This document shows, one piece after another, positions 281-30,791 of a stretch of DNA of 30,887 bases (the stretch's first letter is position 1; each line of letters begins with the position of its first letter). The notes below the pieces were generated by a model that worked only from the letters and a program-made list of their open reading frames with translations, ran no database searches and was not told where the DNA came from. The stretch comes from Escherichia coli (lineage in GTDB: Bacteria; Pseudomonadota; Gammaproteobacteria; Enterobacterales; Enterobacteriaceae), in assembly GCF_003334335.1 (NCBI RefSeq), contig NZ_QOWQ01000049.1; one strand, given 5' to 3'. The translations under genes were made by a program, and so were the position numbers.

Positions 281-318
281 TACAATGCGGGCGAAAAATA
301 AGGATGCCCCGTTAGGGG

Positions 319-354
319 CGTTAGCTGAGTTTTTCGCGAAAAATTCAGCTAACG
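319..354 (+). repeat. 36-bp near-perfect palindrome in the purH 5' leader (CGTTAGCTGAGTTTTTCG / CGAAAAATTCAGCTAACG), preceded by a small GC hairpin at 306..319
   Basis: Read directly. The two 18-nt arms are reverse complements except one position (g329/t344), which is a G-U wobble in the plus-strand RNA and a C-A mismatch in the minus-strand RNA. Confidence 0.85.
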
Positions 355-387
355 CTCTCTGTAATAGTCAAATCCAGGGGATTTACC

Positions 388-1977
388 ATGCAACAACGTC
401 GTCCAGTCCGCCGCGCTCTGCTCAGTGTTTCTGACAAAGCCGGTATCGTCGAATTCGCCCAGGCACTTTCCGCACGCGGTGTGGAGCTGCTGTCTACAGG
501 GGGCACTGCCCGTCTGTTAGCAGAAAAAGGTCTGCCGGTAACCGAAGTTTCCGATTACACCGGTTTCCCGGAGATGATGGATGGACGCGTGAAGACCCTG
601 CATCCGAAAGTACATGGTGGCATTCTGGGCCGTCGCGGCCAGGACGATGCCATTATGGAAGAACATCAGATCCAGCCTATCGATATGGTGGTTGTTAACC
701 TGTATCCGTTCGCCCAGACCGTGGCCCGTGAAGGTTGCTCGCTGGAAGATGCGGTTGAGAACATCGATATCGGCGGCCCAACGATGGTGCGCTCCGCCGC
801 CAAGAACCATAAAGATGTCGCAATCGTGGTGAAGAGCAGCGACTATGACGCCATTATTAAAGAGATGGATGACAACGAAGGATCGCTGACGCTTGCAACC
901 CGTTTCGACCTCGCCATCAAAGCCTTCGAACACACTGCCGCCTACGACAGCATGATTGCCAACTACTTCGGCAGCATGGTTCCGGCTTACCACGGTGAAA
1001 GCAAAGAAGCCGCCGGTCGCTTCCCACGCACGCTGAACCTGAACTTCATTAAGAAGCTGGATATGCGTTACGGCGAGAACAGCCACCAGCAGGCTGCCTT
1101 CTATATAGAAGAGAATGTGAAAGAAGCCTCCGTTGCTACCGCAACCCAGGTTCAGGGTAAAGCCCTCTCTTATAACAACATCGCCGATACCGATGCGGCG
1201 CTGGAGTGCGTGAAAGAGTTCGCCGAGCCGGCATGTGTGATTGTGAAGCACGCCAACCCTTGCGGCGTGGCTATCGGCAATTCCATTCTTGATGCTTACG
1301 ATCGCGCGTACAAAACCGACCCAACCTCCGCATTCGGCGGCATCATTGCCTTTAACCGCGAGCTGGATGCGGAAACCGCACAGGCCATCATTTCTCGTCA
1401 GTTTGTCGAAGTGATTATTGCGCCGTCCGCCAGCGAAGAAGCCCTGAAAATCACCGCCGCCAAACAGAACGTACGCGTTCTGACCTGCGGTCAGTGGGGC
1501 GAGCGTGTTCCGGGCCTCGATTTCAAACGCGTGAACGGCGGTCTGCTGGTTCAGGATCGTGACCTGGGGATGGTCGGTGCGGAAGAACTGCGCGTGGTGA
1601 CCAAACGTCAGCCGAGCGAACAGGAACTGCGTGATGCGCTGTTCTGCTGGAAGGTGGCGAAGTTTGTGAAATCCAACGCTATCGTCTATGCCAAAAACAA
1701 TATGACTATCGGCATTGGCGCGGGCCAGATGAGCCGCGTGTACTCCGCAAAAATCGCCGGTATTAAAGCGGCCGATGAAGGCCTGGAAGTGAAAGGTTCC
1801 TCGATGGCTTCTGACGCGTTCTTCCCGTTCCGCGACGGTATTGATGCCGCCGCCGCTGCGGGCGTGACCTGCGTAATCCAGCCTGGCGGTTCTATCCGTG
1901 ATGACGAAGTGATTGCCGCCGCCGACGAGCACGGTATTGCGATGCTCTTCACCGACATGCGCCACTTCCGCCATTAA
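388..1977 (+). CDS. purH: Bifunctional AICAR transformylase / IMP cyclohydrolase
   Basis: 529-codon ORF; translation recognisable throughout as PurH (N-terminal MGS-like domain, LSTGGTA motif). AGGGGA Shine-Dalgarno 8 nt upstream of the ATG. Confidence 0.97.
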
Positions 1978-1988
1978 TGGAGCAATAG

Positions 1989-3278
1989 ATGAAAGTATTA
2001 GTGATTGGTAACGGCGGGCGCGAGCACGCGCTGGCCTGGAAAGCGGCCCAGTCGCCGCTGGTTGAGACTGTTTTTGTTGCTCCGGGTAATGCAGGCACTG
2101 CACTGGAACCCGCGCTGCAAAACGTTGCTATTGGCGTGACCGATATCCCGGCGCTGTTGGATTTCGCACAAAACGAAAAGATTGATCTGACCATCGTCGG
2201 CCCGGAAGCGCCGCTGGTGAAAGGCGTGGTCGATACCTTCCGCGCCGCCGGGCTGAAAATCTTCGGCCCAACCGCAGGTGCGGCCCAACTGGAAGGCTCA
2301 AAAGCGTTTACCAAAGATTTCCTGGCCCGCCATAAGATCCCTACGGCGGAATACCAGAACTTCACCGAGGTAGAACCTGCGCTGGCGTATCTGCGTGAGA
2401 AAGGCGCGCCAATCGTCATTAAAGCGGACGGTCTGGCTGCCGGGAAAGGCGTTATCGTGGCGATGACGCTGGAAGAAGCGGAAGCGGCTGTTCACGATAT
2501 GCTGGCGGGCAACGCTTTTGGCGACGCGGGTCATCGCATCGTTATCGAAGAGTTCCTCGATGGCGAAGAAGCGAGCTTTATCGTGATGGTGGACGGCGAG
2601 CATGTGCTGCCGATGGCTACCAGCCAGGATCACAAACGCGTAGGCGATAAAGATACCGGACCAAACACCGGCGGGATGGGCGCTTACTCCCCCGCGCCGG
2701 TAGTAACCGATGACGTTCATCAGCGCACCATGGAACGTATTATCTGGCCAACCGTGAAAGGCATGGCGGCGGAAGGCAACACCTACACCGGTTTTCTCTA
2801 CGCGGGCCTGATGATCGACAAACAGGGCAATCCGAAGGTTATTGAATTTAACTGCCGCTTTGGCGATCCGGAAACCCAGCCGATTATGCTGCGCATGAAG
2901 TCCGATCTGGTTGAGCTCTGCCTGGCGGCCTGTGAAAGCAAACTGGACGAGAAAACGTCCGAGTGGGATGAACGCGCTTCTCTCGGCGTGGTGATGGCTG
3001 CGGGTGGATATCCGGGTGATTACCGCACCGGTGACGTGATCCACGGCCTGCCGCTGGAAGAAGTGGCAGGCGGCAAAGTGTTCCACGCGGGCACAAAACT
3101 GGCGGATGACGAGCAGGTAGTGACCAACGGCGGGCGCGTACTGTGCGTCACCGCGCTGGGTCATACCGTGGCAGAAGCGCAGAAACGCGCCTATGCCTTA
3201 ATGACCGATATCCACTGGGACGACTGCTTCTGCCGGAAAGATATCGGCTGGCGCGCTATCGAACGCGAGCAGAACTAA
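1989..3278 (+). CDS. purD: Phosphoribosylamine-glycine ligase (GAR synthetase)
   Basis: 429-codon ORF starting 11 nt after the purH stop; ATP-grasp family translation typical of PurD. Confidence 0.97.
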   Translation: MKVLVIGNGGREHALAWKAAQSPLVETVFVAPGNAGTALEPALQNVAIGVTDIPALLDFAQNEKIDLTIVGPEAPLVKGVVDTFRAAGLKIFGPTAGAAQLEGSKAFTKDFLARHKIPTAEYQNFTEVEPALAYLREKGAPIVIKADGLAAGKGVIVAMTLEEAEAAVHDMLAGNAFGDAGHRIVIEEFLDGEEASFIVMVDGEHVLPMATSQDHKRVGDKDTGPNTGGMGAYSPAPVVTDDVHQRTMERIIWPTVKGMAAEGNTYTGFLYAGLMIDKQGNPKVIEFNCRFGDPETQPIMLRMKSDLVELCLAACESKLDEKTSEWDERASLGVVMAAGGYPGDYRTGDVIHGLPLEEVAGGKVFHAGTKLADDEQVVTNGGRVLCVTALGHTVAEAQKRAYALMTDIHWDDCFCRKDIGWRAIEREQN

Positions 3279-11622: not shown

Positions 11623-11650
11623 GCCCCATTTGCGGGGCTAATTTCTTGTC
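11623..11650 (+). terminator. Intrinsic terminator downstream of rsd
   Basis: 5-bp GC stem GCCCC/GGGGC with ATTTGC loop, followed by the T-rich tract TAATTTCTTGTC. Confidence 0.6.
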
Positions 11651-11735
11651 GGAGTGCCTTAACTGGCTGAGACCGTTTATTCGGGATCCGCGGAACCTGA
11701 TCAGGCTAATACCTGCGAAGGGAACAAGAGTTAAT
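11651..11735 (+). promoter_or_regulatory. TPP riboswitch (THI element) in the thiC leader
   Basis: Contains the conserved thi-box core CTGAGA (11667..11672) and the downstream AACCTGATCAGGCTAATACCTGCGAAGGGAAC segment, about 90 nt upstream of the thiC ATG. Confidence 0.85.
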
Positions 11736-11817
11736 CTGCTATCGCATCGCCCCTGCGGCGATCGTCTCTTGCTTCATCCGTCGTCTGACAAGCCACGTCC
11801 TTAACTTTTTGGAATGA

Positions 11818-17185: not shown

Positions 17186-17439
17186 GACGGAATGTAAGAA
17201 CGTAAATTTATTCCGAGCCGCTACGGAAGATGAAAAACGCAAGGTTGTTGAAAGCGTTGTGTTTTTTTATGGTAGTGCCGTCAGCAGGAATGTTGTCCAG
17301 GGCGAAAAGCTTCTTCCTCGTTTCGCCCTGCCTTTCTTAAAAATTCCGTAATGCAAAGTCTGAAGCCATCGCCTGTTGAGCAATGAAAGAGATCTGATTG
17401 TAAGAGAGTAAATACTCAACTATGATAGAGACGAAAATA

Positions 17440-17601
17440 AGAACACATGTTCTCATCTTCCAGGATGCAGCAGACTGAAGAAATTCAGACATCCCGCAAC
17501 CTGCGATTATCGCAAGGTCAAGGCAAAGTCCGGTAATGGCGTTCTGAATACCAGAGATAATTCTCTGGCGAAACCCACCTTAAGGTGGGTTTTGTTATTT
17601 T
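17440..17601 (+). ncRNA. sroH: Candidate small RNA at the 3' end of the thi transcript region (position matches the sRNA sroH reported between thiH and htrC in E. coli K-12); 5' end not determinable from sequence
   Basis: Two consecutive hairpins (CCAGAGA-TAAT-TCTCTGG at 17551..17568, then AAACCCACC-TTAA-GGTGGGTTT at 17571..17592) followed by TTTTGTTATTTT; the 3' end is well defined. The 5' boundary and the identity are from memory of the K-12 locus. Confidence 0.4.
17571..17601 (+). terminator. Strong intrinsic terminator (9-bp perfect stem, TTAA loop, T-rich tail)
   Basis: AAACCCACC TTAA GGTGGGTTT followed by TGTTATTTT, read directly. It is a good terminator only on the plus strand; on the minus strand the hairpin is followed by CGCC. 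Confidence 0.8.
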
Positions 17602-26920: not shown

Positions 26921-26954
26921 GCGCAAAAAGGCTGGTGACTAAAAAGTCACCAGC
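26921..26954 (-). terminator. rplL-rpoB intergenic attenuator (partial terminator)
   Basis: Perfect 9-bp inverted repeat GCTGGTGAC-TAAAAA-GTCACCAGC (26931..26954) which on the minus strand is followed by CUUUUUGCGCU; lies 41 to 64 nt downstream of the rplL stop. Confidence 0.75.
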
Positions 26955-26994
26955 CATCAGCCTGATTTCTCAGGCTGCAACCGGAAGGGTTGGC

Positions 26995-30562: not shown

Positions 30563-30734
30563 AAACCAACCTGTCAGAAGTTTTCTACAAACATTTTCAC
30601 CCCGCGATCGCGAGGCAAACCAAATCGAAACGCGTATTAGCTTTTCGGATTATACGCCCTCAACAGAGCCTGTCTCAGCAATGATTATGACAAAGAAAAT
30701 CACTGATGAGCCAAGTTCTGGTACGAAAGCGTGC

Positions 30735-30761
30735 AAAAAGGGCATCAAATGATGCCCTTTT
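30735..30761 (-). terminator. tufB intrinsic terminator
   Basis: AAAAA GGGCATC AAAT GATGCCC TTTT: 7-bp perfect stem flanked by A and T runs, about 30 nt downstream of the tufB stop. Confidence 0.85.
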
Positions 30762-30791
30762 AGTGCGCATTGCGTCAAATGTTATCGGCAA

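Follow-up and report, generated by a model that had tools for sequence, protein, structure and literature searches.

Upstream of the genes purHD of Escherichia coli, a long helix is encoded in the leader of the messenger RNA, which was analysed here within a window of 30,887 nucleotides (the whole stretch examined, from contig NZ_QOWQ01000049.1 of assembly GCF_003334335.1; all positions refer to it). Judged from orthologous leaders, this element is a sense-strand RNA helix that is maintained by compensatory evolution in four families of the Enterobacterales, and a functional structure of the sense strand can be assumed with high confidence. On the same comparative ground the purH leader as a whole is a conserved cis-acting structured element of the 5′ untranslated region (UTR), which is unannotated and lies outside Rfam. 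As mode of action we favour a bistable leader that would switch the translation of purH, to which a probability of roughly 30–35% is assigned.

Covariation of the central helix

A first-pass annotation, made from the sequence alone, had described a small hairpin (306–319) followed by a near-perfect palindrome (about 319–354), and both were recovered at these positions in the sequence and by a repeat search. The small hairpin on the plus strand, termed HP1 here, was assigned from sequence and folding and has a 5-bp GC stem (GCCCC-GUUA-GGGGC, 306–319). The core of the palindrome, termed HP2 (320–353, plus strand), is defined by the inverted repeat, by folding and by covariation; its 15-bp stem pairs 320–334 with 339–353 around the apical loop CGCG (335–338), and its two halves read GTTAGCTGAGTTTTTCG and CGAAAAATTCAGCTAAC. 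In the repeat search, the arms comprise 21 nucleotides (318–338 and 335–355) with 95% complementarity, and, depending on the border chosen, the palindrome begins at 318 or 319 and ends at 354 or 355. The sole mismatch within it is g329 against t344, exactly as first noted. As RNA the palindrome forms 17 pairs, 318–334 with 339–355, again closed by the CGCG loop. Here, G318 and C319 are common to HP1 and this 17-pair stem, so both helices compete for two bases. Within the 30.9-kb window it outranks every other short-range inverted repeat, and by our own arithmetic from the base composition a palindrome of 18+18 nucleotides with at most one mismatch would be expected by chance about 1e-4 times per 31 kb.

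The claim that the element is better paired as plus-strand RNA also held in folding calculations. For positions 290–400 the plus strand reaches −37.2 kcal/mol (z = −4.2, with none of 200 shuffles being equal), in a structure with HP1 stacked on the 15-bp stem, in comparison to −35.0 kcal/mol (z = −3.7) for the minus strand. The centroid structure of the plus strand favours a longer stem of 19 pairs.

For a comparison across species, purH loci from 80 species, identified by protein similarity, were combined with 120 metagenomic stretches found by the pattern of pur box and −10 region, which resulted in 120 distinct leaders. The long stem is present in 109 of them, covering Enterobacteriaceae, Erwiniaceae, Yersiniaceae and Pectobacteriaceae; it was not found in the purH leaders of Rosenbergiella, Morganella, Budvicia and Edwardsiella. 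A covariance model derived from 47 Enterobacteriaceae leaders has its sole match of the window in the purH leader, and the same model recovers long forms in Cedecea, Pantoea, Erwinia and Serratia-like loci. The apex of the element ranges from the 4-nucleotide loop of E. coli, which gives an element of 34 nucleotides, to branched inserts (up to 85 nucleotides). The stem flanks GCGUUA...UAACGCUCU are nearly invariant across the leaders, and the same holds over the four families for the four basal pairs GUUA/UAAC together with the flanking GGGGC and GCUCU. Two leaders of Photorhabdus (L036 and L037) are devoid of the enteric flanks, yet their stem base (AU)GUUAUUG...CAAUAAC(AU) keeps the GUUA/UAAC pairs; from these leaders, the stem base may be older than the GCUCU flank.

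Compensatory changes between orthologous leaders had been suggested as a check of the RNA structure, and the alignment contains many of them. When the 15 basal pairs of HP2 are aligned without gaps (alignment A1, 66 distinct sequences), 88.1% of the cells are paired; column shuffles give 77.4%, with none of 500 being equal, and two-sided changes occupy 101 cells where 40.7 are expected (0 of 500). Sliding the partner strand by 1–3 columns lets the pairing fall to 30–46%. Two-sided compensatory changes occur at 8 of the 15 pairs, with which the raw pair table from the 109 leaders agrees. The anchors of A1 were picked by maximising pairing over 12 positions, which brings a mild bias towards structure; independent of this choice are the two-sided changes at pairs 5, 6, 11 and 12 as well as the one-sided alternation between G-U, A-U and G-C at pair 10. 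The covarying interiors include GCUGAG/UUCAGC, GAUGAG/UUCAUC, GGUGAG/CUCACC, CCUGAA/UUCACG and CAUGAG/CCUGAUG, and in some clades pairs 6 and 8 may be mismatched. The lone imperfection, a wobble in the sense transcript, had been interpreted as a trace of selection on the structure of this transcript, and the orthologues point in the same direction. Throughout the stem, the purH strand carries G-U in 62 cells and A-C in 18, and the pair 329/344 is G-U in 29, A-U in 27 and G-C in 10 sequences, but never A-C.

These data also bear on the alternative, raised at the outset, that the palindrome is a DNA operator for a dimeric protein. Here, the operator could belong to a regulator of the LacI family (RbsR, Cra or PurR), or the palindrome could act as a supercoil-absorbing cruciform next to the ribosomal RNA (rRNA) operon rrnE. 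A near-perfect palindrome would fit such a DNA element, RbsR and PhoP are listed as regulators of purHD, and the arms contain GCTGA/TCAGC, which is reminiscent of LacI-family half-sites. However, the spacing of the arms varies between 34 and 85 nucleotides and the centre is not conserved. The half-sites are not fixed but covary (GCTGAG/TTCAGC, GATGAG/TTCATC, GGTGAG/CTCACC), and the purH leaders of Vibrio and relatives, described below, have a long hairpin without a neighbouring rrn operon. Due to the G-U wobble asymmetry, the variable arm spacing and the covarying arms, the element is read as an RNA helix and not as the operator of a dimer; a LacI-type operator for RbsR, Cra or PurR was rejected on account of spacing and arms, and a role as DNA element is extremely improbable. 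A minus-strand terminator reported by a terminator scan (GCCCCTAACGGGGC followed by ATCCTTATTT) was rejected as well, since its U-tract is unconserved on the reverse strands of Pantoea and Klebsiella and the wobble favours the plus strand.

Within E. coli the leader is under purifying selection. Its positions 296–372 (77 nucleotides) are identical in 5333 of 5420 genomes (98%), with one locus each, whereas the 77-nucleotide spacer 180–256 between the rrnE P1 promoter and the purH promoter is identical in 1064 of 5102 (21%) and absent or unmatched in about 320. Where a further place was reported in each genome, this most likely reflects self-matching of the palindrome on the opposite strand. 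The variants seen in Escherichia are G302A in the single-stranded tail, C319U at the junction and C335U in the apical loop, of which C319U is still able to form a wobble pair with G306 or G354. A repeat of the repetitive extragenic palindromic or bacterial interspersed mosaic type, or a mobile one, was discarded, as the element occupies one locus per genome in the 5420 E. coli genomes and gives one match of the covariance model in the window.

Promoter and setting of purHD

The region belongs to the E. coli chromosome and is present in 5420 of 5426 complete genomes, in many at 100% identity. The coding sequence of purH (388–1977, plus strand, 529 amino acids) follows the RefSeq annotation of identical E. 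coli loci, and purD (1989–3278, plus strand) lies 3′ of it. Upstream of purH the 16S rRNA gene of rrnE is arranged divergently, and RefSeq annotates nothing between the two.

The PurR operator (pur box) GCGCAAACGTTTTCGT at 265–280 on the plus strand is conserved in orthologous loci and is the reverse complement of the PurR site ACGAAAACGTTTGCGC, which was given for purH-purD by chromatin immunoprecipitation on chip (PMC3159470). The hexamer TACAAT (281–286, plus strand) stands directly 3′ of the pur box, also in those Enterobacterales loci that protein similarity had identified; its assignment as −10 element is based on conservation and position, because a consensus promoter scan contains no full −35/−10 pair for purHD. 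It is followed by the GC-rich discriminator GCGGGCG (287–293, plus strand) and the single-stranded A-rich 5′ tail AAAAAUAAGGAU (287–305 together with the discriminator, plus strand), and the orthologues share this pattern of 7–8 GC-rich nucleotides and then an A-rich run. Since the arrangement of pur box, TACAAT, discriminator and A-run recurs in orthologues, transcription of purHD most likely starts near A294, which would give a leader of about 94 nucleotides; the published start-site supplements that were examined contain no purH entry. From 5′ to 3′ the complete order is GCGCAAACGTTTTCGT, TACAAT, GCGGGCG, AAAAATAAGGAT, GCCCC-GTTA-GGGGC, GTTAGCTGAGTTTTT, CGCG, AAAAATTCAGCTAAC, GCTCTCTGTAATAGTC, AAATCC-AGG-GGATTT, ACC and ATG. 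The palindrome was thus correctly placed between the PurR box with TACAAT and the ribosome binding site of purH, as seen from the match to the PurR site and the purH start at 388. This placement of the helix between the PurR operator with the −10 element and the ribosome binding site supports the sense-RNA reading.

Several features around this promoter were considered besides the leader helix. The discriminator, GCC(C/G)CGC in relatives, sits between the −10 element of purHD and the presumed start. A GC-rich discriminator is a hallmark of promoters sensitive to guanosine tetraphosphate (ppGpp) and DksA, such as the neighbouring rrn P1. On the minus strand, positions 1–100 of the window contain a promoter of the rrn P1 type (TTGCGG...TATAATGCGCCTCC), which is directed away from purH and represents rrnE. 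An Rfam match to the Yersinia small RNA (sRNA) Ysr197 at 26–85 is sub-threshold (26.9 bits in comparison to a gathering threshold of 167) and is probably due to conservation of the rrn leader. Reiterative transcription at the A-run 294–298 was rejected, as this run is unconserved. A small upstream open reading frame, AUG304-CCC-CGU-UAG (MPR*, 304–315, overlapping HP1), was discarded as well. Its AUG is missing in many genera (GGAC...), the frame is extended to the six codons MPRKGR* in many Enterobacteriaceae, ending at the UAG of GUUAGC, and frame and stop are unconserved in Pantoea and Serratia. Furthermore, the Shine-Dalgarno-like GGA directly abuts the AUG without any spacing, and the reading frame is probably fortuitous.

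In databases and literature, little is recorded for this leader. Within Rfam, nothing at E<=10 occurs in the leader apart from a chance match to mir-725 well below threshold; at the gathering threshold there is no leader match in the window and none anywhere in 14 orthologous loci. The matches to mir-725 and Ysr197, both below threshold, are meaningless for the palindrome. The first-pass annotation had named no leader control of purHD beyond PurR repression. This stands in so far as no functional study of the leader was found; it does not for the regulators, since a RegulonDB-derived table gives RbsR and PhoP in addition, although, judging from operator similarity, RbsR would more plausibly act at the pur box itself. 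Among studies on RNase III, CsrA, Term-seq, start sites and Nus factors, and by search with the leader sequence as a string, no searchable paper prints the leader sequence or discusses a purH leader RNA; the purHD sequence papers of 1989/1990 are outside this coverage. Flannigan et al. are reported to have described, in 1990, two dyad symmetries that exclude each other, located at the 5′ end of the purHD mRNA, and the dyad symmetries of the leader were probably already noted then.

Alternative pairings and their possible output

Besides the core stem, HP2 can be extended on the plus strand to 313–361, either by pairing of G315–C319 with G354–U358 or by pairing of U313–G317 with C357–G361, in which case U356 is bulged. 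The resulting helix has 20–24 bp and excludes HP1. Its 3′ side is part of the flank CGCUCUCUGUAA (353–364, plus strand), which is nearly invariant, boxA-like in relatives and part of the single-stranded linker to the ribosome binding site. Further downstream, folding delivers a third hairpin, HP3 (AAAUCC-AGG-GGAUUU, 370–384, plus strand), which holds the Shine-Dalgarno sequence AGGGGA (376–381). In a partition function of the transcript starting at 294, the extension has a probability of about 0.8 and HP1 of about 0.2, while the pairing of CCCC (307–310) with GGGG (377–380) reaches about 0.48 and HP3 about 0.37. HP2 itself has a probability of about 1 in every model. HP1 and the extension are predicted to be mutually exclusive and near in energy, and in either predicted conformer the Shine-Dalgarno sequence takes part in pairing.

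Based on these pairings, the following mechanism is favoured. HP2 is read as the central helix of a structured 5′ UTR of about 94 nucleotides, transcribed from the PurR-controlled promoter with its −10 element at 281–286, and the G-run 315–319 would have two alternative partners. In one state, the G-run would pair with CCCC 307–310 to form HP1, and the pyrimidine-rich linker GCUCUCUGUAAU would stay single-stranded. In the other state, it would pair with GCUCU 354–358, so that HP2 is lengthened to 20–24 bp and the linker is buried; this would release CCCC, which would then be free to pair with GGGG 377–380 of the Shine-Dalgarno sequence. The balance of both conformers would set the frequency of ribosome starts on purH, with mRNA stability and premature termination as possible secondary effects. 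The result would be a post-transcriptional layer on top of PurR repression.

This switch is supported since HP1 and the extension share G315–C319, both are widely pairable among relatives, RNAalifold selects the extension, and the partition function gives both at the probabilities above. In the 47 Enterobacteriaceae leaders, 86% of the HP1 cells pair, with no two-sided changes and one pair being C-U in 21 of the 47; HP1 occurs in most relatives, where its loop mostly belongs to the GNRA type (GUAA, GAAA, GUGA, GCAA). Outside the Enterobacteriaceae, compensatory variants of HP1 occur, namely CCUC/GAGG (L010) and CCUGG/CCAGG (L022). The extension is pairable in 94.8% of the cells and is the RNAalifold consensus of the 47 leaders; it has no covariation signal, both strands being nearly invariant. 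All six pairs of HP3 are invariant in the 47 leaders and hence uninformative on pairing, and the hairpin is absent from the leaders of Erwiniaceae, Yersiniaceae and Pectobacteriaceae. The combinations CCCC:GGGG in Enterobacteriaceae and CCCUU:AAGGG in Erwiniaceae and Yersiniaceae fit an anti-Shine-Dalgarno role, and the same pairing is predicted in minimum-free-energy structures of Pantoea.

Several points weigh against such a switch. No sensor or trigger is apparent for it, and the searchable literature is without any experiment on the purH leader. As HP1, the extension and HP3 are nearly invariant and show no covariation, their competition rests on thermodynamic prediction. For the long-range anti-Shine-Dalgarno pairing, a predicted probability above 0.3 is reached in only 38% of 105 leaders, and due to the confinement of HP3 to the Enterobacteriaceae the output may differ among families. 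Finally, the location of the helix within the transcript is deduced from the conserved −10 element and discriminator together with the wobble asymmetry.

The formation of HP2, predicted as nearly certain, would also suit a constitutive structural module without regulation, i.e., an insulator, an organiser of a standby site or a brake on RNase E decay, in which the folded leader gives linker and ribosome binding site a defined accessibility. In line with this, the E. coli helix has no internal loop resembling a ligand pocket, and the mismatches at pairs 6 and 8 fit such a module. However, a generic spacer helix would require neither that GUUA/UAAC, GGGGC and GCUCU be invariant in four families nor the 98% identity within E. 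coli. Furthermore, the single-stranded 5′ tail comprises about 12 nucleotides, so the hairpins do not cap the 5′ end. A purely structural role is therefore considered rather unlikely.

Length and shape of the helix suggest RNase III as another candidate. Here, cleavage in the leader would set the half-life or translatability of the purHD mRNA, and the 17-bp helix would mimic double-stranded RNA of about 22 bp via its 20–24 bp extension or by coaxial stacking on HP1; RNase III accommodates about 22 bp (PMC6212723). What is preserved in the orthologues is indeed geometry and not sequence, a long and mostly perfect stem, in which single mismatches are tolerated while apex and length vary. Such a pattern would be expected where an enzyme that binds double-stranded RNA recognises the site. 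In this respect, the leader resembles the RNase III leader hairpins of rnc, rpsO-pnp, adhE and betT, which are long, near-perfect, sequence-variable double-stranded elements of 5′ UTRs; the purH helix would reach about two turns if extended. On the contrary, the base of the purH helix is invariant in sequence, which is unneeded by RNase III, and helix geometry alone leaves the GUUA/UAAC base and the GCUCU flank unexplained. Among the RNase III sites in the accessible part of the lists, no rnc-dependent cleavage is documented for the purH leader, and for the purH-rrsE intergenic region these give the site in the rrnE leader (4207874). Processing by RNase III is possible but not probable.

The flank would also allow for a role of Nus factors. 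Nearly all of 105 leaders have GCTCT directly 3′ of the stem, and the flank reads CGCTCTTA, the lambda boxA, in 27 of the 105, all from Erwiniaceae (CGCUCUUA as the first 8–9 nucleotides past the stem), and GCTCTTTA, the core of the rrn boxA, in 8 from Dickeya and Serratia-like bacteria (GCUCUUUA); the E. coli type is CGCTCTCTG. The background frequency of these 8-mers is 0.013–0.053 per kb. The leader could therefore act as a nut-like site, a hairpin followed by a boxA-like sequence, which recruits NusB/NusE with NusA, NusG and SuhB to the polymerase on purHD, and the outcome would be repressed translation with promoted Rho termination as at suhB, or protection from Rho. The boxA consensus is GYTCTTTAANA, and precedents exist: suhB has a functional boxA in its 5′ UTR near the Shine-Dalgarno sequence, and a putative boxA precedes prsA, another nucleotide-synthesis gene, in three genera (PMC5725501). 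In addition, NusB-NusE has a site for double-stranded RNA contiguous with the boxA site (PMC3177189). As in rrn boxB-boxA, lambda nut and the suhB boxA, the purH leader has a hairpin and then (C/U)GCUCUU tens of nucleotides from the Shine-Dalgarno sequence, with the exact lambda octamer in Erwiniaceae and the rrn core in Dickeya and Serratia-like leaders.

However, the purH hairpin is far longer than boxB, and the boxA of the relatives is degenerate in E. coli: within its flank CGCUCUCUGUAA, the version GCUCUCUG matches only 6 of 8 core positions and has C at the position where the inactive suhB boxA mutant C4T/T6C has it as well. Pairing with the G-run would also explain the conservation of GCUCU. 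The Vibrio-type purH hairpins end in AUAUCUU, without the G2 and C3 needed by NusB, and Vibrio purH is not adjacent to an rrn operon. Also, the available part of the supplements of PMC5725501 contains no purH terms. A Nus-dependent role of the leader is unlikely in E. coli.

The topology of HP1 and the extension is that of a classical attenuator, since the 3′ strand of HP1 doubles as the 5′ strand of the terminator base. Extended HP2 with a U-rich tract would be an intrinsic terminator and HP1 the antiterminator. The tails are U-richer in relatives, e.g., CUCUUUUAUUG in Serratia-like leaders, and the Vibrio-type hairpins have the tails UCUUUAUUUUUAAC and A-rich stretches upstream. Nevertheless, the E. 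coli tail past the extended stem, CUGUAAUA, contains 3 U in 8 positions, where at least 5 U in 8, set off by no more than 0–2 nucleotides from a G+C-rich stem, were required, and a terminator scan revealed no plus-strand terminator in E. coli 1–600, in a Serratia-like locus (L091) or in a Vibrio locus (L047). The supplements of an E. coli 3′-end study (PMC7815308), as far as they were available, do not contain purH, and no sensor is apparent for the antiterminator. Attenuation is thus regarded as improbable. Control by CsrA was rejected: in a table of PMC5694010, purH carries "No" in four columns, which presumably hold the calls of crosslinking immunoprecipitation sequencing, and the GGA located upstream is removed by G302A in some E. 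coli strains, with several genera having AGA instead.

The leader could also respond to a metabolite. HP1, the long helix and the invariant junction of G-run and GCUCU might constitute a metabolite-sensing RNA of a new class, responding to a signal of the purine pathway or of one-carbon metabolism, such as ZMP/ZTP (5-aminoimidazole-4-carboxamide ribonucleoside mono- and triphosphate), phosphoribosyl pyrophosphate (PRPP) or 10-formyl-tetrahydrofolate, in gamma-proteobacteria that are devoid of the pfl/ZTP riboswitch and with a counterpart in Vibrio, Aeromonas and Shewanella. This idea is very unlikely to be correct. The ZTP (pfl) and purine/PRPP riboswitches of other phyla are alike in being structured leaders before purH or pur operons, whereas the purH leader is without Rfam match and its E. 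coli helix without an internal loop or junction of the aptamer type.

Related leaders and biological meaning

Among E. coli and Salmonella genes, the pyrC and pyrD leaders offer a further comparison, as these too belong to nucleotide biosynthesis and place a foldable Shine-Dalgarno sequence downstream of a PurR-type operator. There, the CTP and GTP pools set the selection of the start site, and a short hairpin masks the Shine-Dalgarno sequence. The purH leader differs by its three hairpins with a long central helix, and nothing points to a switch of start sites.

A second type of long hairpin is present in the purH leaders of Vibrio, Photobacterium, Grimontia, Aliivibrio, Ferrimonas, Shewanella and Aeromonas (loci L043–L054, L063, L069, L072 and L079), about 30–150 nucleotides upstream of purH (locus positions about 2330–2480). 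At the base it reads GGGUAUUU(N)CCAAA... / ...UUUGG(N)AAAUAUCUU, with a variable apex and visible covariation between genera. Gene and position, the long stem and the variable apex are shared with the enteric element, and the closing GGG:UCU resembles the enteric GGGG:CUCU. In contrast, the sequence of the stem base differs, the tail is U-rich in Vibrio and the enteric covariance model misses this hairpin. No Rfam family matches it at the gathering threshold. It is apparently analogous to the enteric hairpin and undescribed.

Elsewhere in the window, three further RNA elements were matched in Rfam. A thiamine pyrophosphate (TPP) riboswitch at 11640–11740 on the plus strand (74.8 bits, above gathering) is presumably the leader of thiC; the sRNA sroH is matched in full length at 17433–17593 on the plus strand (201 bits); and the family P26, a Pseudomonas sRNA, is matched at 26929–26990 on the minus strand (74.5 bits), a position that, by the E. 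coli gene order, is probably the rplL-rpoB intergenic region. The second-best inverted repeat of the window, at 30726–30771, has 22-nucleotide arms with 82% complementarity (AAAGCGTGCAAAAAGGGCATCA / TGATGCCCTTTTAGTGCGCATT) and resembles a terminator hairpin.

The purHD operon is a textbook PurR operon, yet its leader helix is under clear structural selection in four families, with no function assigned in the searchable literature. With its well-defined covarying pairs, this helix lends itself readily to mutate-and-restore experiments. Should translation, stability or termination be modulated by the leader, purHD would possess a PurR-independent control point at the step from 5-aminoimidazole-4-carboxamide ribonucleotide (AICAR) to inosine monophosphate (IMP), where ZMP/ZTP accumulates under folate stress. 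ZTP was first described in enteric bacteria, and if the leader does sense such a metabolite, the enterics would gain their missing ZTP-responsive element. A possible, testable connection of purine synthesis to the pool of Nus factors for rRNA transcription is suggested by the boxA-like flank of relatives. Finally, judging from the analogous hairpin of Vibrio, Aeromonas and Shewanella, this control architecture may be widespread among gamma-proteobacteria.

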